DNA of 29,803 bases from a virus (lineage: Duplodnaviria; Caudoviricetes). The notes beneath the pieces are model-generated. The model had not been told where the DNA came from. It made no database searches and saw nothing but the letters and a program-made list of their open reading frames with translations. This document shows, in pieces, positions 1,905-11,701 of the stretch. Position numbers and translations under genes: made by a program. The stretch spans positions 1-29,803 of the IMG/VR virus record IMGVR_UViG_3300005804_000117, one strand, 5' to 3'. Numbering within the stretch: the stretch's first letter is position 1; each line of letters starts with the position of its first letter.

Positions 1905-2393
1905 ATGGCTTCAAGCCGGAATAAAAGATGGAATAAAAAACAGTCCACCCCCGAGGATCGCCGCCGGGCCGAGCTGGCCAAGATCCACATCGCCAAGGCG
2001 GAAAAAGGGCTGTCCGAGGACGATTACCGCCTCATGCTCAAGAACGTCGCCGGCGTCGATTCGGCGGCCGACCTTGACGCCAGGGGCCGGCGGGCCGTGC
2101 TGGATCATCTGTGTGGAAATCCCCCCCGGCCCCCCTTTCATAAAGGGGGGAGTTCCTACCCCAACCGGCCGAAGAACATGGACCGCCCCTCTTCCCGGGC
2201 CGAGCAGCTCAAGAAGATCGAGGCATTGCTCACCGTCGGCGGGAAGCCGTGGGCGTATGCGGATGCTATAGCACGTGCGATATGCCGGGTGGACAAGGTG
2301 GCATGGGTCAAGGATGGGGACCTCTACAAGGTCATCACCGCGCTACGGAAACAGGCGCAGCGCGAGGGGTGGGATCTGAGCGGGGAAAAATGA
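1905..2393 (+). CDS. gemA: GemA / Mu gp16 family (DUF1018) regulatory protein
   Basis: LAKIHIAK..GLSEDDYRLML...SAADLD motif; directly upstream of the mor-like gene as in Mu. Confidence 0.9.
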   Translation: MASSRNKRWNKKQSTPEDRRRAELAKIHIAKAEKGLSEDDYRLMLKNVAGVDSAADLDARGRRAVLDHLCGNPPRPPFHKGGSSYPNRPKNMDRPSSRAEQLKKIEALLTVGGKPWAYADAIARAICRVDKVAWVKDGDLYKVITALRKQAQREGWDLSGEK

Positions 2394-2986
2394 TGAAACC
2401 TGAGTTTATGGAAAAATATCCCGAGCTGCTGGAAGACGCCTGGCGCAAGCTGTCCGAACGCCTTCAGGAGGTGGGCTATGCCCGCGAGCAGGCCGACGAG
2501 GCCGCGTTCCGGATGACCGAATACCTGCGCCAAGAGTGGTCCGGCAGGATGCTCTACATCCTGAAGAAGAAAGACGTACCCCGGGAAAAACAGGATGATC
2601 TCTTCCAGAACCAGGCGGCGCCGGCCGCGGCCGAGGCAACCTCGAACGTCCTCACCGAGGCCCAGCTCACCGCCATAGCGCGGAGTTTTTCCCGTATTCT
2701 CGGCGAGGCGGCGCCAGAACGGGCCGACAGCCTGGGGATGAAGCTGCTGGAGCTGCTCCGTTCCGATTGGGCGGGCACTTCGCTGTTCGTGCCCAAGGGA
2801 GTGGTCTACGAGACCACCCGGCGTGATTATGTCCTCTGGCGGGCGTGGGACGGATCATACCGGTCCAAGCTGGCGCTGATGCGTCAGTACGGCATCGGCG
2901 AACAGGCGTTCTATGCGGCTATCCGGCGTATCCGGAAGGCTCACCTGTTGAGGACTCAGATGAAACTGCCGGGGGTGGAGGGATAA
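2390..2986 (+). CDS. mor: Mor/C family transcription activator with duplicated N-terminal domain
   Basis: ATGA-coupled start. YPELL...EWSGRMLYILK and DWAGTSLFVPKG motifs, then C-terminal HTH RDYVLWRAWDG...LMRQYGIGEQAFYAAIRR. Confidence 0.85.
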   Translation: MMKPEFMEKYPELLEDAWRKLSERLQEVGYAREQADEAAFRMTEYLRQEWSGRMLYILKKKDVPREKQDDLFQNQAAPAAAEATSNVLTEAQLTAIARSFSRILGEAAPERADSLGMKLLELLRSDWAGTSLFVPKGVVYETTRRDYVLWRAWDGSYRSKLALMRQYGIGEQAFYAAIRRIRKAHLLRTQMKLPGVEG

Positions 2987-2991
2987 CGGCT

Positions 2992-3048
2992 GTGCGCGGT
3001 GGCCGGGGGGTGTGCAGGTGGTTGATGCGCTGCCCCGGTCGCTGCCAC
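2992..3048 (+). other. Long hairpin with G-U pairs after the mor stop
   Basis: GCGGTGGCCGGGG (2996-3008) pairs with CCCCGGTCGCTGC (3033-3045) using 3 wobble pairs; no U-tract. Confidence 0.55.
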
Positions 3049-3098
3049 GATAACGATCAAGTGTGACCCTCTTGCGGGGTCCGCAGCGCTGATTATAG
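3048..3098 (-). mobile_element. attC-like site A (one core box is ATT instead of GTT on the + strand)
   Basis: + strand: CGATAAC-GATCAA-GTGTGAC-CC..GG-GTCCGCAG-CGCTG-ATTATAG. Confidence 0.55.
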
Positions 3099-3124
3099 CG
3101 CACATACACAGAAGGAGGAATCAC

Positions 3125-3355
3125 ATGCATTACAAGAACGGAAGAGAAGCAAAGAATGGTGACAAGGTTGTTTTAATTCCCAGCTATGGCGCTCCGGTAA
3201 TCGGTATCCTGTACGATGCTCAGGCCGGAAACGACTACTGCAACGGGAAGATCGCGCCCGTGTCGCCGAACGACCCCTGCCCGAACCTCAAAGAGTGCCT
3301 GCACCTGGATGACGTGCTGGCGGCGGTGAAGGCATCCGAAGGAACGGAGCAATAA
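3125..3355 (+). CDS. Cassette 1 ORF, 76-aa hypothetical protein
   Basis: Strong RBS GAAGGAGG; MHYKNGREAKNGDKVV...NDYCNG...CLHLDD. Confidence 0.85.
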   Translation: MHYKNGREAKNGDKVVLIPSYGAPVIGILYDAQAGNDYCNGKIAPVSPNDPCPNLKECLHLDDVLAAVKASEGTEQ

Positions 3356-3358
3356 GTC

Positions 3359-3484
3359 ATGGCGCACGGCCAGCACCGGAACTCGATAAGCCTGGAAGAG
3401 CCGAAACCGTCCGAACCTTTGGAGTCGGGTAGCGCTGGAGGCAAGTCACTGTCGGCAGGTTGGTCAAAGCTGGCCGTGCGCTAT
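3359..3484 (+). ncRNA. Candidate structured RNA inside cassette 1
   Basis: Perfect 13-bp closing stem GCGCACGGCCAGC (3362-3374) / GCTGGCCGTGCGC (3469-3481) around ~95 nt with no convincing ORF. Confidence 0.4.
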
Positions 3485-3543
3485 AACGACTTGTAAATCA
3501 CCTGCAAGCGAAGCGCAGCCAGAGTGCATTTTTCTGGTTATGC
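3481..3543 (-). mobile_element. attC-like site B (best preserved)
   Basis: - strand: GCATAAC-CAGAA-AAATGCAC-TCTG...CAG-GTGATTT-ACAAGTC-GTTATAG. This matches R''/5-nt spacer/8-nt L''/7-nt L'/R' with two extrahelical bases. Confidence 0.75.
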
Positions 3544-3564
3544 GCTCCTTGCCACGGAGCGATC

Positions 3565-3780
3565 ATGAGAAATCACATTGTAGCAGGGCAACACGGTGAT
3601 ACTAAACTTTGGCACGGCTTGTACTACGTCAATCATCCTACTCCGAGCGGCTGTGACAGGCCGATTCTCAGACTCTCGACAAAGGTCGGATTCAGCACGG
3701 AACGGGAGGCTGTGGAGGCCATGAAAGCGGCGTTCACTCCCGAGCAATTGGCAGAAATAGACGTGCCGGAATTTAGCTGA
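3565..3780 (+). CDS. Cassette 2 ORF, 71-aa hypothetical protein
   Basis: GGAG RBS; lower-GC codon usage; the stop falls inside site C. Confidence 0.7.
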   Translation: MRNHIVAGQHGDTKLWHGLYYVNHPTPSGCDRPILRLSTKVGFSTEREAVEAMKAAFTPEQLAEIDVPEFS

Positions 3781-3815
3781 CCCGCCAAGGGTCGGTGTCG
3801 AGCGGCTGGTTATTT
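3763..3815 (-). mobile_element. attC-like site C (left core box degenerate)
   Basis: + strand: GCTGAC-CCG..CGG-T-GTCGAGC-GGCTG-GTTATTT; the expected left AAC is missing. Confidence 0.55.
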
Positions 3816-3839
3816 TGCCGCTGAACGGAGGAGGCGATT

Positions 3840-4016
3840 TTGAAACTGTCATACAACCAGTCACGGATATTAGACAGCATTGGTGATGAGTGGGCAACTG
3901 TATCGGCTGTATTTCGCAGCATCACACGGACTACAGACGCATTGCGGAAAATGGGGTTGATCGAGACGCGGCTAGATAGATTTGGACAAGTTCAAGCCCG
4001 TCGGATAGCAAAATAA
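3840..4016 (+). CDS. Cassette 3 ORF, 58-aa putative winged-HTH-like protein (not in the ORF track)
   Basis: GGAGGAGG RBS, TTG start; MKLSYNQSRILDSIGDEWATVSAVFRSITRTTDALRKMGLIETRLDRFGQVQARRIAK*. The TAA lies within the AAATAAC box of site D. Confidence 0.7.
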   Translation: MKLSYNQSRILDSIGDEWATVSAVFRSITRTTDALRKMGLIETRLDRFGQVQARRIAK

Positions 4017-4063
4017 CAGTCCCCGCCGCTGAGCGGCTTGCCCGCTCGTGCGGCACGTTATCT
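4011..4063 (-). mobile_element. attC-like site D
   Basis: + strand: AAATAAC-(10 nt)-GCTGAGC-GG..CC-GCTCGTGC-GGCAC-GTTATCT. Confidence 0.6.
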
Positions 4064-4073
4064 CCAGCCCCTC

Positions 4074-4104
4074 AAGGCCCGTCACCCGGCGGGCCTTTCA
4101 TTTT
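4074..4104 (+). terminator. Rho-independent terminator closing the early/middle transcript
   Basis: AAGGCCCGTC-ACCC-GGCGGGCCTT followed by TCATTTT. Confidence 0.75.
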
Positions 4105-4147
4105 ATAAAGCCCTTTACTATCTAGCAAATCCCTCCCCTGTTACCGT
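4100..4147 (+). promoter_or_regulatory. Activator-dependent late promoter (Plys-like)
   Basis: 23-bp box ATTTTATAAAGCCCTTTACTATC (dyad TAAAG-CC-CTTTA), identical to 12555-12577; -10 TACCGT at 4142-4147. Confidence 0.75.
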
Positions 4148-4184
4148 TGTCCCCGCCGTGACGCAACTCCTCCTTTCTTGTGAT

Positions 4185-4209
4185 GGCGGGCTTCGGCCCG
4201 CCCCGTTTT
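4185..4209 (+). terminator. Terminator/attenuator-like hairpin in the lysis leader
   Basis: GGCGGGC-TTCG-GCCCGCC followed by CCGTTTT. Confidence 0.55.
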
Positions 4210-4349
4210 CCACCAAAATACACCGGGCGCCCACGACCCCAGCCTCCGTGATCCTGGGCAGGCGCCGTCTATGACGGGGGCGGACTGTAAATCCGCCCAT
4301 AGCAGGCGGGGGCCGGGATAGTCCGGCCCCCACATTCACAGGAGTCCAG

Positions 4350-4817
4350 ATGCCCCACCTTATCACCGAACACTTCACCCTGGAGGAGCTGACCCGCTCG
4401 GCCACGGCCCTGCGCCTCGGCCTGGACAATACCCTCCCGACCCAGCATTTCCGCAACGTGGAGCTGGTTGCCAGTGCCCTGGAGAAAATCCGCGCACACT
4501 TCGACAGGCCGATTCGCGTGACCAGCTGCTTCCGCTCCAAATCCGTCAACAAGGCGGTTGGGGGTTCGCCGACCAGCGCCCATTGCGCGGCCATGGCCGT
4601 CGATTTCGAGGTCGTAGGCGTACCAAATATCGCAGTTTGTCTGGCCGTGCCCGGGCTCATCCCCGAGTTCGACCAGGTCATCTACGAGTTCGGCCCCACC
4701 GGCTGGGTCCACCTGGGGCTGGCGCACAAGGCCCCGCGTCATCAGGAGCTGACAGCGGTCAAGGTGGGCGGCAAGACGGTGTATAAACCGGGGATATTGG
4801 ATTTGTGGAAAATATAA
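4350..4817 (+). CDS. Endolysin, peptidase M15 family
   Basis: HFTLEELTRS...RVTSCFRS..VNKAVGGSPTSAH.AAMAVD...WVHL zinc-peptidase motifs; first late gene. Confidence 0.85.
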   Translation: MPHLITEHFTLEELTRSATALRLGLDNTLPTQHFRNVELVASALEKIRAHFDRPIRVTSCFRSKSVNKAVGGSPTSAHCAAMAVDFEVVGVPNIAVCLAVPGLIPEFDQVIYEFGPTGWVHLGLAHKAPRHQELTAVKVGGKTVYKPGILDLWKI

Positions 4818-4891
4818 ACCAGGGGCTCGGGGCTGGAGGCTAGGGGCTGGTGTTTCCAGTTTCCAGTCCCCAGTCCCAAATCCCCAGCCCC
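4818..4891. repeat. Inverted heptamer-repeat (GGGGCTN / CCCCAGN) REP-like element
   Basis: Tandem 7-mers forming a hairpin; related runs at 656-680 and 8918-8944. Confidence 0.65.
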
Positions 4892-4910
4892 CGCATCTAG
4901 GAGGTATGAC

Positions 4911-5558
4911 ATGAAAGACATCAAACCCTGGCTCGGCATCATCACCTTCATCGGCTTCATCGTCTGTATCGGCCTGCTGTTCTACGTTCCCCCACCCTCG
5001 GCGACCCGGGACATAATCCTGGTGGTCATCGGCACCATGGTTACCCTGGTCAAGGAGGTTTACGGGTTCTACTTCGGGAGCTCCGAAGGGAGCGCCCGCA
5101 AGACAGAGCTGATGAGCGGCGCGGACCTGCCTCTCGCGCCGCCACTGATTCAGGGCGCGGCAAGCGGCGCCCCTACGGCCGCCGTCAAAGAAGGCGGGTT
5201 TGTCCGGCTGTCCATCCTGCTCATCCTGGCCGCCCTGCTGATTATCGGCTTGAGCGCCTGCGCCACCACCGAGACCCCGCAGAGCATCGCCGTGAAGACG
5301 CTTCTTTCCACTCGCCAGGGCATTATCGCCGCGGCCACGACCGCCGACGAGCTCTGCACCCAGGGGGTTCTGCGACAGGCGGACTGCGACAAGGCCCTGG
5401 CGTTATACAAACAGGGCCAGGCTGCGTACCTCGTGGCCTCCGACGCGTTCCAGGTCTACCTGGACACCGGTCGTTCCGGGGGGTACGACCTGGCCCTGGC
5501 CCGGCTCCGGACCCTGCTGCTCGATCTGCAGGCACTCACGGGAGCGGCAAGCAACTAG
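4911..5558 (+). CDS. Holin-like membrane protein fused to a lipoprotein (spanin-like) domain
   Basis: Two TMs ending YFGSSEGSARK, a third hydrophobic segment with lipobox LSAC (Cys117), then a helical domain. Confidence 0.65.
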   Translation: MKDIKPWLGIITFIGFIVCIGLLFYVPPPSATRDIILVVIGTMVTLVKEVYGFYFGSSEGSARKTELMSGADLPLAPPLIQGAASGAPTAAVKEGGFVRLSILLILAALLIIGLSACATTETPQSIAVKTLLSTRQGIIAAATTADELCTQGVLRQADCDKALALYKQGQAAYLVASDAFQVYLDTGRSGGYDLALARLRTLLLDLQALTGAASN

Positions 5559-5581
5559 GGCGCGGCAAGCGGCGCCCCTAC
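5152..5581. repeat. Pair of exact 25-bp direct repeats (GTAG-family REP halves)
   Basis: AGGGCGCGGCAAGCGGCGCCCCTAC at 5152-5176 and 5557-5581. Confidence 0.8.
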
Positions 5582-5590
5582 AGGAGGTAA

Positions 5591-5788
5591 ATGATGGACC
5601 CGGCAACCGCACAGCTCATTCTCATCGGCTTGACCCTGGCTGAGAAGATAATCTTCTCGGTGGGCGGGAAGCTCTTCGAAGTGAACACGGCTGATTTCAC
5701 CGACTCGGCAAAGATCGTCAAGGCCCTGGAAGACGCACGGGCAGACGGCTTTCCGGATATGAAGTTCGTTTCTTCCGCCAAAGGGTAG
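5591..5788 (+). CDS. Small hypothetical lysis-module protein
   Basis: GGAGGT RBS; 65 aa with a hydrophobic N-terminus. Confidence 0.7.
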   Translation: MMDPATAQLILIGLTLAEKIIFSVGGKLFEVNTADFTDSAKIVKALEDARADGFPDMKFVSSAKG

Positions 5789-5793
5789 GCCCT

Positions 5794-6084
5794 GTGGGTG
5801 ACGAGATTGACCGCGCGCAGCAGCGGGACGAGTTTTTTCTTAACCTCGCATTGGGCGAACATGCAAGGCGAAATCCCCCCCAGCCCCCCTTTTACAAAGT
5901 GGGGAGCGCCCCCGACCCAGAGGCACCCAACCCCACTTTGAAAAAGGGGGGTGCGAGTGAAACGAGCGGGGGGATTTGTGAAGACTGCGGCGACCCCATC
6001 CCCGAAGCCCGTCTCCGGGCGATGCCGGGCGCCACCCGCTGCGTAGCCTGTCAAACCATGCATGAAAACTGGAGACCACTGTGA
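5794..6084 (+). CDS. TraR/DksA C4-type zinc finger protein
   Basis: DEIDRAQ...CEDCGDPIPEARLRAMPGATRCVACQ. Confidence 0.9.
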   Translation: MGDEIDRAQQRDEFFLNLALGEHARRNPPQPPFYKVGSAPDPEAPNPTLKKGGASETSGGICEDCGDPIPEARLRAMPGATRCVACQTMHENWRPL

Positions 6085-6410
6085 CCCAACAGCCCGTCAT
6101 CAACTATCAGTCCCTCAACTTCTGGTTCCAGGTCTTCCAGTTCCTGCTTACGGCCGCCATCGGTATCTACGTCTGGTGGACGAACCGGGAGAAGGTGACG
6201 AACAAGAGGTTTTCCGCGGCGGAAAACCGGCTGGCGCAACTGGAAAACGATGTGAAGCACCCGCCTGCCTGCACCTATCATCCGCGCCTGGAGGAACGAA
6301 TGGACGCGGTCCAGGGTGATACAAGGGAGATTAAAGGGTCGCTCAAGGGCCTCGCAAAGGCCGTGGATCTGATCAACGAGTTCCTCATAAACCAGGGAGG
6401 CAAGCGGTAA
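6081..6410 (+). CDS. Mu gp25-like (DUF2730-like) TM plus coiled-coil protein
   Basis: N-terminal TM, coiled coil, position before gp26/gp27. Confidence 0.7.
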   Translation: MTQQPVINYQSLNFWFQVFQFLLTAAIGIYVWWTNREKVTNKRFSAAENRLAQLENDVKHPPACTYHPRLEERMDAVQGDTREIKGSLKGLAKAVDLINEFLINQGGKR

Positions 6411-6715
6411 TGGAATACTGCGATCTCAAGGCACAGCACCACCGCCTTATAATCCTCCGGCTGCTGCAGGAGGATAGCGCGGCCTATACCCTGAACGATT
6501 CCATGCTCCAGGACGGTATGGAGATGGTCGGGCAGAAATGCTCCCGGGATTGCGTCAGGACGCATTTGTCGTGGCTGAAGGAACAGGGGCTCATCACCCT
6601 CAAGACGGTACTGGACGGCGCGGTCTACGTGGCCACCCTCACCGCCCGCGGGCTCGACGTGGCCACCGGCGCGGCCGTGGTCCCGGGGGTGAAGCGCCCC
6701 CGGCCGGGGGAATAG
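6410..6715 (+). CDS. Mu gp26-like winged-helix protein
   Basis: RLIILRLL...LSWLKEQGLI...LTARGLDVATG...PGVKRPRP. Confidence 0.85.
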   Translation: MEYCDLKAQHHRLIILRLLQEDSAAYTLNDSMLQDGMEMVGQKCSRDCVRTHLSWLKEQGLITLKTVLDGAVYVATLTARGLDVATGAAVVPGVKRPRPGE

Positions 6716-8996: not shown

Positions 8997-10508
8997 ATGG
9001 CAACTGACAGGCAAAAACCCATAACCGACGAGATAGCCAGCGCGGCGAGCGACTTCGATATCTTCCAGGGGTTCCTGACCCACCTGGCCAACCCGGACAA
9101 GGTGCTGGCCCTGGAGTGCGGCGGCGACATCACGGTCTATGACGACATGAGCCGGGACGACCGCATCGGCCCGTCGCTCCGCACCAGGGCGCTGGCGGTC
9201 ATCGGCCGGGAGTGGGAGATCACCCCATACTCCGACAAGGCCGAGGACATGCGGCGCGCCGAGTACGTGAAGCAGGTCTTCCTCGGCTTCCCCTTCGACC
9301 TCGCCCGCCGGGCGCTGCTCAGGGGCGGGACCCTGAAGGGGTTCGCACTGTCCGAGGTGATGTGGGATTACAGCGAGGGGGACGTGTTCATCAGGGACAT
9401 GCGCCACCGGACGCAACGGCGCTTCAGGTTCGACCTGGAGAACAACATCCTCCTCATCACCCGCGATAACCCCATGGGCGAGAACGTGAGCACCCGGGAC
9501 GGCTTGCCGCTTCGCAAGTTTCAGCACGTGACCTTCGGCGACGAGGTGGAGACCCCCTACGGAGTGGGCCTGGGCCGGGAGCTGTACTGGCCCTGGTGGT
9601 TCAAGAAGAATGGCATCAAGTTCTGGCTCATGTTCTGCGACAAGTTCGCCGGGCCGACCGTGACCGGGGAATACCCCAGCGGCAGCAAGAAGGAACAGCA
9701 GGACGCGCTCCTGGCGGCCGCCCAGGCGGTCCACTCCAACAGCGCCGTGATCTACCCCCAGGGTATGAATCTGAAGCTCCTGGAGGCGGCCCGCAGCGGC
9801 TCCATCACCACCTACAAGGAGCTGGTGGAGTACATGGACGGCGCCATGACCGTGGTGATCCTGGGCCAGACCGCCACCACCGAAGGGACCCCGGGCGCGC
9901 TGGGCAACCAGGACGCCCAGGCGGACGTGCGGGGCGACCTGGTCAAGGCGGATGCCGATGCGCTGTGCGAGGCCCTGAATAGCGAGAACGGCGTGGTGCG
10001 CTGGCTGGTGGACTACCAGTTCCCGGGAACCAAGAACTATCCACAGATGTGGATCAAGACCGAGGACGAGGAAGACGAGCTGGTCGTGGCCGAGCGGGAC
10101 GAGAAGCGGTCCAATGCCGTGGCCGCGTCCGGGGCGCGGCTCACGCCGGTCTACTTCAAGCGGCGGTACGGGCTGGAGGATGATGAGATAGAAATCGTAG
10201 GCACGGGGACCGAGGATCGAGGAACGGGGAAAAACAACACCCTGCAGTTTGCCGAGCCCGGCGACGACCCCACCGCCACGGTGTCCGCCCTTTCCGAGCG
10301 ACTCGGCTCGGCGTCCGGCCCGGAGACCGGCGCATGGATCGACGCTTTGAGGAAGAGGATCGACGCGGCGGAAGACATCAAGGAACTGCCGGAGATCCTC
10401 CTTGCCGCCTACCCCGACATGAGCGTGGAGGCCCTGGCCGGGATCATCGGCGAGGAGACCATGCGGGCCGTGATGGCGGGGAGGATTGACGTGGAGAGCG
10501 GCGAATGA
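8997..10508 (+). CDS. Portal protein (Mu gp29, DUF935)
   Basis: PYGVGLGRELYWPWWFKK...FCDKFAGP..GEYP...ILGQTATT motifs; follows terL. Confidence 0.92.
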   Translation: MATDRQKPITDEIASAASDFDIFQGFLTHLANPDKVLALECGGDITVYDDMSRDDRIGPSLRTRALAVIGREWEITPYSDKAEDMRRAEYVKQVFLGFPFDLARRALLRGGTLKGFALSEVMWDYSEGDVFIRDMRHRTQRRFRFDLENNILLITRDNPMGENVSTRDGLPLRKFQHVTFGDEVETPYGVGLGRELYWPWWFKKNGIKFWLMFCDKFAGPTVTGEYPSGSKKEQQDALLAAAQAVHSNSAVIYPQGMNLKLLEAARSGSITTYKELVEYMDGAMTVVILGQTATTEGTPGALGNQDAQADVRGDLVKADADALCEALNSENGVVRWLVDYQFPGTKNYPQMWIKTEDEEDELVVAERDEKRSNAVAASGARLTPVYFKRRYGLEDDEIEIVGTGTEDRGTGKNNTLQFAEPGDDPTATVSALSERLGSASGPETGAWIDALRKRIDAAEDIKELPEILLAAYPDMSVEALAGIIGEETMRAVMAGRIDVESGE

Positions 10509-11701
10509 CCAGAGAAGAGTTCGACGCCGTCTTTAAATTGCCCTTCAACGAGGCTTCCAGGTTCTTTCAGCAGAAGCTGAACATCCCCACTTCAGCCTGG
10601 GACGACCTGTGGAAGGAGCAGCACGCCAGGGGGTTCATGTCCGCCGGGGCGGCAAAGGCGGCCCTGCTCACGGACCTGCGCGGCGCGGTTCAGAAGGCGA
10701 TAGACGGCGGGCTCACCCTGAAGGAGTTCCGGGAGCAATTTGATGCCATCGTGGACAGACACGGCTGGGCCTACAAGGGGGGGCGCAACTGGCGCAGCCG
10801 CCTGATCTGGGACACCAACATCACCACCTCATACCAGGCGGGCCGCTGGCAGCAGTTTATCGAGAGCCTGACCGAGTATCTCCGCTACGTCCATGCGGAC
10901 GGGGTCATCAATCCCAGGCCGCAGCATCAAGCCTGGGACGGGACCATCCTCCCCATCGGTCATCCCTGGTGGGACACCCATTATGGCCCGAACGGCTGGG
11001 GATGCCACTGCCGGGCTGTCCGGGCCTCGGAAGAGGAGTACCGACAGGCACAGGCGGACGGTCGAGGTGAAGCGCCGCCGTCTCCTATCGATCCTACGAC
11101 CGGTGCACCGGTCGGCATAGACAAGGGGTGGGATTACAACGTCGGGAAGGCGGCATACGGCCAGAACATCCAGGCGCGGCTCATGGAAGACCAGGGGCCG
11201 TGGAAAGACCTGTGTCCGGGACGGCCGGAGGATTACAACCGCCCGCCAAAGATGCCGGTCGACGCGCCGAAGGCGAAGCTCGGGACCAGGCAGCGTACCG
11301 AGGACGGATTGCGCGAGGAGCTGAGAAGGTCCGTGGGCGGCGACTCGGTATCCATTGCCGACCCGACCGGCGAACGGACGCTGATTACCCAGGGGATAGT
11401 CGACCACATCCTGGCCAAGCCGGACACTCGCTGGGACGGCAGGGAGGAGTACTTCCCCTTCATCCGGGAGCTGCTCGAAGAGCCGTATGAGATCTGGGTC
11501 AACTTCGCAAAGAGCGAGGTCTCCGGCCGGGTGGGCCTGCGCAAGAAGTATGTGAAGACCATCCGGCTCGACAAGGATCGGGTTCTGGGGCTGTACGCGG
11601 AAATACAGGACGGGGTCTGGGTGAGCGGAGATTTCTTTCGTGGTGGATCGAGTGCGGCGAACAACCTGCGGAAGGGAAAGCTTCTGTACGGTAGGGATTG
11701 A
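10505..11701 (+). CDS. MuF (gp30) minor head protein with C-terminal putative PBECR-type nuclease domain
   Basis: MuF motifs RPQHQAWDG...GPNGWGCHC...GIDKGWDYNVG, then ~160-aa extension HIL...GREEYFPFIRELLEEPYEIW...RKKYVK...RKGKLLY. Confidence 0.85.
   Translation: MTREEFDAVFKLPFNEASRFFQQKLNIPTSAWDDLWKEQHARGFMSAGAAKAALLTDLRGAVQKAIDGGLTLKEFREQFDAIVDRHGWAYKGGRNWRSRLIWDTNITTSYQAGRWQQFIESLTEYLRYVHADGVINPRPQHQAWDGTILPIGHPWWDTHYGPNGWGCHCRAVRASEEEYRQAQADGRGEAPPSPIDPTTGAPVGIDKGWDYNVGKAAYGQNIQARLMEDQGPWKDLCPGRPEDYNRPPKMPVDAPKAKLGTRQRTEDGLREELRRSVGGDSVSIADPTGERTLITQGIVDHILAKPDTRWDGREEYFPFIRELLEEPYEIWVNFAKSEVSGRVGLRKKYVKTIRLDKDRVLGLYAEIQDGVWVSGDFFRGGSSAANNLRKGKLLYGRD

Follow-up and report, generated by a model that had tools for sequence, protein, structure and literature searches.

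Integron integrases acting in trans can place cassettes outside an integron, at secondary sites known as attG. In phage genomes, clusters of attC sites lacking an integrase (CALINs) have been described, and phage attC sites recombine with IntI1 (Qi et al. 2023, PMC9892861); in phage P12002L, attC sites point in divergent directions (PMC9892861). IntI carries out the crossover at AA/C on the attC bottom strand, the slash marking the point of exchange (Nivina et al. 2016, PMC5027507). Here we analyse a stretch of phage DNA of 29,803 nucleotides, from now on referred to as the window, in which three small genes follow a phage mor gene. Judged from sequence, these genes (ORF1 to ORF3) occupy 963 bp inserted at a hairpin, site D, that is conserved among relatives; they are probably integron-type cassettes that reached this position through an integron integrase acting in trans.

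The window covers part of a Mu-like phage genome, without its left end, with the gene order GemA, Mor, gp27, Mu portal, F, gp36 and gp37, and further encodes a peptidase M15 lysin and a terminase. The closest annotated phages have terminases less than 42% identical to that of the window. Between the mor stop codon at 2986 and a hairpin at 4074-4097 lie three ORFs of 76, 71 and 58 amino acids, each with a ribosome-binding site and with a G+C content of 0.47-0.55 compared with 0.62 for the whole window. The original prediction had read this interval as an integron-like cassette array in a Mu-like phage, ending before a terminator at 4074. Both the phage assignment and the terminator agree with the gene order and the 4074-4097 hairpin, and the three ORFs, their ribosome-binding sites, four hairpin sites and both pairs of complementary cassette ends could all be located as predicted. 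Elsewhere in the window, a PBECR2 nuclease-like domain is fused to the Mu F-like head protein (10505-11701), and a 25-29 bp repeat occurs in the lysis region (5152-5180 and 5557-5581) as well as at other places in the relatives L094 and L095. The features of the interval are:

2390 to 2986, plus strand: mor, late-transcription activator (PF08765, E 9e-22), with its TAA stop inside the first AAC box.
2981 to 2987, plus strand: first AAC box, GGATAAC, which holds the mor stop; a second breakpoint.
2988 to 3053, plus strand: site 0, a fifth site whose hairpin (2992-3048) is rich in G:T pairs; likely a cassette without a gene that has collapsed.
3048 to 3098, plus strand: site A, with left box CGATAAC, insertion point 3053/3054 and a decayed right box.
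3054 to 3486, plus strand: cassette 1, consisting of site A, ORF1 and a 120-bp tail, with ends complementary over 11 bp.
3125 to 3355, plus strand: ORF1, 76 aa, a widespread viral protein found in ESM Atlas viral clusters.
3481 to 3543, plus strand: site B, running from AAC over 7 nt to a 7-nt box and, past the loop, from an 8-nt box (C unpaired) over 5 nt to GTT.
3565 to 3780, plus strand: ORF2, 71 aa, in cassette 2, which starts at 3487 and whose right-end box is missing.
3776 to 3815, plus strand: site C, which keeps its paired core, the unpaired G and the GTT box but has lost the left AAC box and spacer.
3840 to 4016, plus strand: ORF3, 58 aa, in cassette 3, whose stop codon falls within the AAC box of site D.
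4011 to 4063, plus strand: site D, crossover 4016/4017; the fixed phage-side target.
4074 to 4097, plus strand: intrinsic-terminator-like hairpin closing the gemA-mor-cassette unit, kept in the relatives L092, L094 and L095.

On the plus strand, the left arm of the sites comprises AAC, a spacer of 7-10 nt and a 7-nt box; after the loop, the right arm comprises an 8-nt box in which one base is unpaired, 5 nt and GTT. Canonical attC geometry had been claimed for all four of them. This holds for B, C and D, which share the 8-nt right-arm box with its unpaired base, the 5-nt spacer and GTT, but not for A, where an A at 3092 stands in place of the G of GTT and the register of the unpaired base is ambiguous; the left spacer of D is atypical in that it spans 9-10 nt compared with 6-8 in 105 bacterial sites. 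The unpaired base of these bacterial sites is G in 87 and C in 17 cases; here, it is C in B and G in C and D. Complete complementary R boxes with AAC and GTT are found in sites B and D. Site D has one mismatch (T:T) and folds about equally on both strands (-15.0 and -15.8 kcal/mol). The partial decay proposed for A and C is borne out by the substitution at 3092 and by the missing left AAC box of C. A copy of site A with G at 3092, and thus with GTT intact, is found on a contig of public run X2, where it has a different upstream neighbour, breaking at the AAC box, and a different gene after the ATG. For site C we infer a deletion of about 15 bp, because the ORF2 homologue at another phage locus, L320, ends in an AAC box complementing its start and the same locus carries an intact look-alike of C. 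Lastly, all four predicted sites are present but their count has to be raised, since a fifth, collapsed one, site 0, occupies 2988-3053. It is also found in the empty-site relative described below and in L097; on an X4 contig, AAC and GTT flank its hairpin, and a ribosome-binding site with a start codon comes next. The tail of cassette 1 is enclosed by a 19-bp inverted repeat (3356-3374 and 3469-3487). In this segment (3349-3487), a GTT-like box comes after the stop of ORF1 and may mark a further collapsed site around a unit that codes for 45 aa or has no gene. Xer/pdif modules were considered for the hairpins and rejected, as no second arm was seen by eye in a comparison with the consensus.

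Relatives were collected through a Mor alignment (three viral relatives) and through the site-D pattern (three records); L095 and L096 are identical over the compared stretch and are counted once. Mor identity is 40-68% in the relatives with a detectable Mor. Mor alone as query had no match in viral contigs, and the Mor alignment had none in genome contigs and one in a short metagenome contig that lacks the downstream region. The site-D pattern gave 57 matches in genome contigs, which were taken as chance as none had AAC and GTT flanks by eye.

The landing pad predicted downstream of gemA-mor is seen in both empty and filled form. Rather than the same three ORFs in a fixed order, the relatives L092 to L096 carry an empty site or different cassettes. 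In L095/L096, whose terminase is 93.5% identical to that of the window, the hairpin ending at window position 3053 joins D directly, and the window equals this allele plus 963 bp (3054-4016) with borders at AA/C on both sides (3053/3054 and 4016/4017). One different gene is located between the mor stop and D in L094 and yet another one ahead of D in L092, both ending at the same AA/C of D as the insert of the window. On a second contig of public run X1, possibly the sample from which the window comes, D is preceded by yet another sequence ending in AAC. The contigs of the public runs contain no excised circle, a negative that contigs by their nature do not establish; no RNA dataset was listed as containing this DNA, the one candidate RNA run being probably DNA. 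Site D itself is identical at 42-44 of 47 bases in four relatives, and the sequence ahead of its AAC differs. Natural junctions at AA/C are thus available from L092, L094, L095 and runs X1 and X2, and these define the unit as a site together with the gene downstream of it, D staying in place. A crossover at the right G/TT, with a gene and its downstream site as the unit, was rejected because D would then vary.

The outermost boxes, 2981-2987 and 4057-4063, had been proposed to mark the empty parent site. Box 2981-2987 is indeed a breakpoint, as L093 and L094 have another site and gene after the mor stop, but the empty site actually observed uses 3048-3054. An older empty state at the mor-stop box is possible, since 2981-2987 exactly complements the right box that D has in L092 and L094. 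In L093, a site and a C5 methylase gene directly follow the mor-stop AAC, and D is absent; after this methylase cassette, D and the terminator are replaced by about 3.7 kb (2940-6700) of ORFs that are not phage-like and lie mostly on the minus strand. L092 has a Rha-family gene between mor and the cassette (5185-6350), behind a structured leader that we take to resemble C4/Ash modules. In L097, site 0 and D are found as a block (4929-5036) in the early region, before a homologue of the window ORF at 1082-1528, and the region ahead of the lysis genes carries no cassettes.

Individually, the sites are weak. Compared with shuffled sequences, only D folds better than expected (z of -3.8 on both strands; on the plus strand, B -1.9, C -1.6 and A -0.5). 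A geometry scanner allowing left spacers of 5-8 nt only found just B in the interval, with an equal score reached 0-2 times per shuffled window (5 shuffles). With E allowed up to 10, Rfam returned 10 matches, all of them well short of its cut-off. A first covariance model, narrowly based on 19 bacterial attC sites, had 229 matches in 97 phage loci, with scores of up to 61 bits; on the window, it scored D at 7.5-8.2 bits, within background, and left A, B and C unlisted. A second model, trained on 45 matches in 19 other phage loci, a close look-alike of C among them, gave eight matches in the 29.8-kb window, the top three being C (33.1 bits, E 1.5e-5), D (18.7 bits) and B (15.6 bits, E 0.17), all on the plus strand. 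Site A was missed by both the bacterial and the phage-trained model. With the latter, D was the sole match in four of six loci searched; a whole-record search did not recover D. Automated attC finders may miss sites as worn as those of the window. Cassette ends provide a further measure. Across 103 adjacent phage site pairs, they pair beyond the core over 4.9 nt on average, compared with 2.2 nt within one site and a shuffled maximum of 2.3 nt (2000 shuffles). In the window, the 11-bp end match of cassette 1 was reached in 2 of 1000 shuffles, and the ends of cassette 3 are complementary over 10 bp. What places the sites beyond chance is the comparison of alleles, namely the empty site and the alternative inserts breaking at AA/C. 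Site B, put forward earlier for an integrase assay, is weak, and the conserved target is D instead.

The three cassette genes of the window are found on the strand showing attC bottom-strand geometry, the reverse of bacterial integrons. One site pattern was scanned in viral contigs, with at least 124 loci matching, and in a single bacterial order, where 22 out of 401 genomes had a match; genome G031 has one match to this pattern. Among the phage matches listed, 88 of 120 distinct ones are structured, divided into 64 inverted, 4 canonical and 20 unclear, as compared with 5 inverted, 16 canonical and 7 unclear among 28 sites in the bacterial order. Three bacterial genomes, two of them from this order's matches, encode long canonical arrays of the same site family adjoining an intI above cut-off. 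Based on the presence of a ribosome-binding site and start codon, 191 sites in 136 phage loci have a gene start on the inverted side only in 125 cases, on the canonical side only in 1, on both in 2 and on neither in 63, whereas the same script returned 5, 21, 0 and 80 for 106 sites in the three bacterial integrons. The predicted inversion of sites relative to ORFs thus holds against the bacterial control (125:1 in phages versus 5:21 in bacteria), in counts where gene calling is crude and loci from shared samples are non-independent. Using the longest ORF alone, phage cassettes are inverted in 61, canonical in 22 and tied in 20 cases, and bacterial ones in 10, 72 and 12.

The window was also predicted to be integrase-less, and neither it nor the relatives encode a detectable IntI: the best match in the window, itself a partial genome, has an E of 0.089, and TIGR02249 has no match at E 0.001 in five records of Mu-like relatives, of which two are 89% and 94% complete. 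IntI above cut-off is likewise missing from five other phage records with such sites, four of which have an ordinary tyrosine integrase. Full IntI proteins were identified in 2 of 227 sequences searched, L227 and L085, scoring 371 and 345 bits against a TIGR02249 cut-off of 265. Both align with five bacterial IntI over a stretch that presumably includes the integron-specific insertion region. At both loci (L227, 1174-4554, record G416; L085, 284-3440), an inverted attC array has IntI encoded at its downstream end, and the array genes point towards intI. In the last cassette, the start is complemented by a terminal AAC box, behind which comes an attI-like stretch, without a detected site, ahead of intI. 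Site and integrase polarity are as in bacterial integrons and the genes alone are turned. Record G416 represents a complete 43-kb temperate tailed phage, its phage nature resting on PHROGs matches, and carries a second, ordinary integrase; PF03237 had no match in the L227 or L085 records. At another phage locus, L190, a 43-aa C-terminal IntI fragment (2035-2163, 72% identical) adjoins a phage site and could be what is left of a decayed phage integron.

ORF1 to ORF3 are most likely accessory genes that would be read at the end of the mor transcript. Relatives of ORF1 are found in 169 viral stretches, and among the best 80 of these a site adjoins the gene at a single locus, L026. None of the three ORFs could be assigned to a family. 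No ORF1 match was found in Pfam or PHROG, and the ESM Atlas look-alikes DUF7205 and YdfZ, with scores below 0.9, are leads at most. ORF2 has three homologous proteins at two loci, one of them in a cassette (L320) and the other without an adjacent site. The L320 cassette keeps the right-end box that cassette 2 of the window has lost; because this box between them is gone, cassettes 2 and 3 would now be mobile only together. ORF3 has a single homologue with 71% identity. The expectation that homologues elsewhere are flanked by the same sites came true for ORF1 in L026 and ORF2 in L320, both located between sites in unrelated phages, but failed at the other 79 of the 80 ORF1 loci.

We propose that cassette circles, folded as single strands, would recombine at AA/C with D or with a site brought in by an earlier cassette, and that the enzyme would be an IntI of either the host or another temperate phage. 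Owing to the inversion, the mor transcript would cover a gene inserted upstream of D before reaching the terminator, and subsequent decay of sites 0, A and C would fix the genes in place. This decay is also what would be seen if the cassettes had been made by IntI elsewhere and the locus were a relic, with the 963-bp block entering a single time or D being carried in passively, and with D kept as an RNA element beside the terminator instead of as a target. The odd spacer and strand-symmetric folding of D, its position abutting the terminator and the block of site 0 and D at another position in L097 fit this scenario as well. However, at least four different sequences end at the AA/C of D (window, L092, L094 and L095/L097, plus the second X1 record), which requires repeated site-specific events, and D has no terminator behind it in L097. 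A relic is thus an unlikely explanation.

It is rather improbable that a recombinase other than IntI, such as a phage tyrosine integrase or an Xer-like enzyme, acts on the hairpins. The same site family adjoins bona fide intI in bacteria and two phages, the crossover point and unpaired base fit IntI rules, and the Mu-like relatives are without any TIGR02249 match at E 0.001. Such an enzyme would account for the tyrosine integrases in four of the five other site-bearing phage records, none of which has IntI above cut-off, and for the divergence of the window sites from the bacterial model. Homologous or illegitimate recombination at linker hairpins, that is, ordinary mosaicism without a site-specific enzyme, has been raised for phage CALINs by Qi et al. 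(PMC9892861), and D plus the terminator could act as a conserved right-hand linker. We give this very little weight: homology starts or stops at the AAC itself, A and D share no sequence beyond AAC, and cassette-specific complementary ends would not be expected. Chance palindromes would agree with single sites scoring near background, but are hardly credible given the empty and differently filled alleles and the fact that the top three phage-trained matches are C, D and B, all on the plus strand.

Integrons have been treated as bacterial devices with genes facing one way. Under the preferred reading of cassettes delivered by an integron integrase in trans, the same site chemistry likely serves the exchange of phage accessory genes at this locus, with the genes reversed and no integrase in cis. 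This would represent a site-specific route to phage mosaicism, with D as a short, assayable target and the IntI of L227 and L085 as candidate enzymes. As ORF1 is mostly a plain phage gene, the locus also bears on the question of cassette origin. Tentatively, and with some doubt, we suggest that phages may run their own mirror-image cassette pool, in which some temperate phages carry IntI and, at the array end, an attI that all array genes face, integrase-less phages such as this Mu-like group draw cassettes via one selected landing hairpin and plain genes like ORF1 become cassettes. If so, phages would be a place to study cassette birth. A phage cassette entering a bacterial integron is predicted to land antisense to Pc.

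The window resembles classical integrons in its AAC and GTT boxes, unpaired base, 5-nt spacer, AA/C crossover and complementary cassette ends, but has no intI, attI or Pc, and its target is an attC-like hairpin. Because the gene is located on the bottom strand, it follows its own site, unlike in classical integrons. Insertion of the top strand (PMC5027507) flips a whole cassette, whereas in the window the gene is flipped relative to its site. In Treponema integrons, as far as described in the available text of Wu et al. 2013 (PMC3607928), intI is co-directional with the cassette genes as in L227 and L085; there, however, intI precedes the cassettes and its transcription runs towards attI, while in L227 and L085 the genes read towards attI and intI comes after the array. 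Insertion at attG differs in that the window has one conserved, structured site reused across phages and carries inverted genes.

Like the window, the phage CALINs of PMC9892861 are attC clusters without an integrase, and methylase cassettes are found both there and in the relative L093. Their type example, TJE1, has all three sites detected here in canonical orientation relative to the annotated ORFs, unlike the window, and the available text of PMC9892861 describes no gene-versus-site inversion, fixed target or empty and filled alleles. In the cultured Polaribacter phage P12002L (L339, 29960-38960), several methylase genes are preceded, on the coding strand, by hairpins with AAC and GTT at their borders. 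These hairpins are possibly of the inverted type; neither scanner nor model classified them. No description of gene-versus-attC inversion or of a reused landing hairpin was found in the mostly open-access literature searched, and the accessible text of PMC9024848 and PMC8618304 makes no mention of the inversion. The locus probably works like an integron cassette array. By anatomy and junctions it is a CALIN, that is, it has at least two attC sites and no neighbouring intI; it differs from classical cassettes, where a top-strand gene precedes the attC belonging to it, and from a complete integron, which has intI and attI in cis. Integrase-less phage attC arrays were already known, and what the window locus adds is a series of empty and filled alleles at one fixed target.
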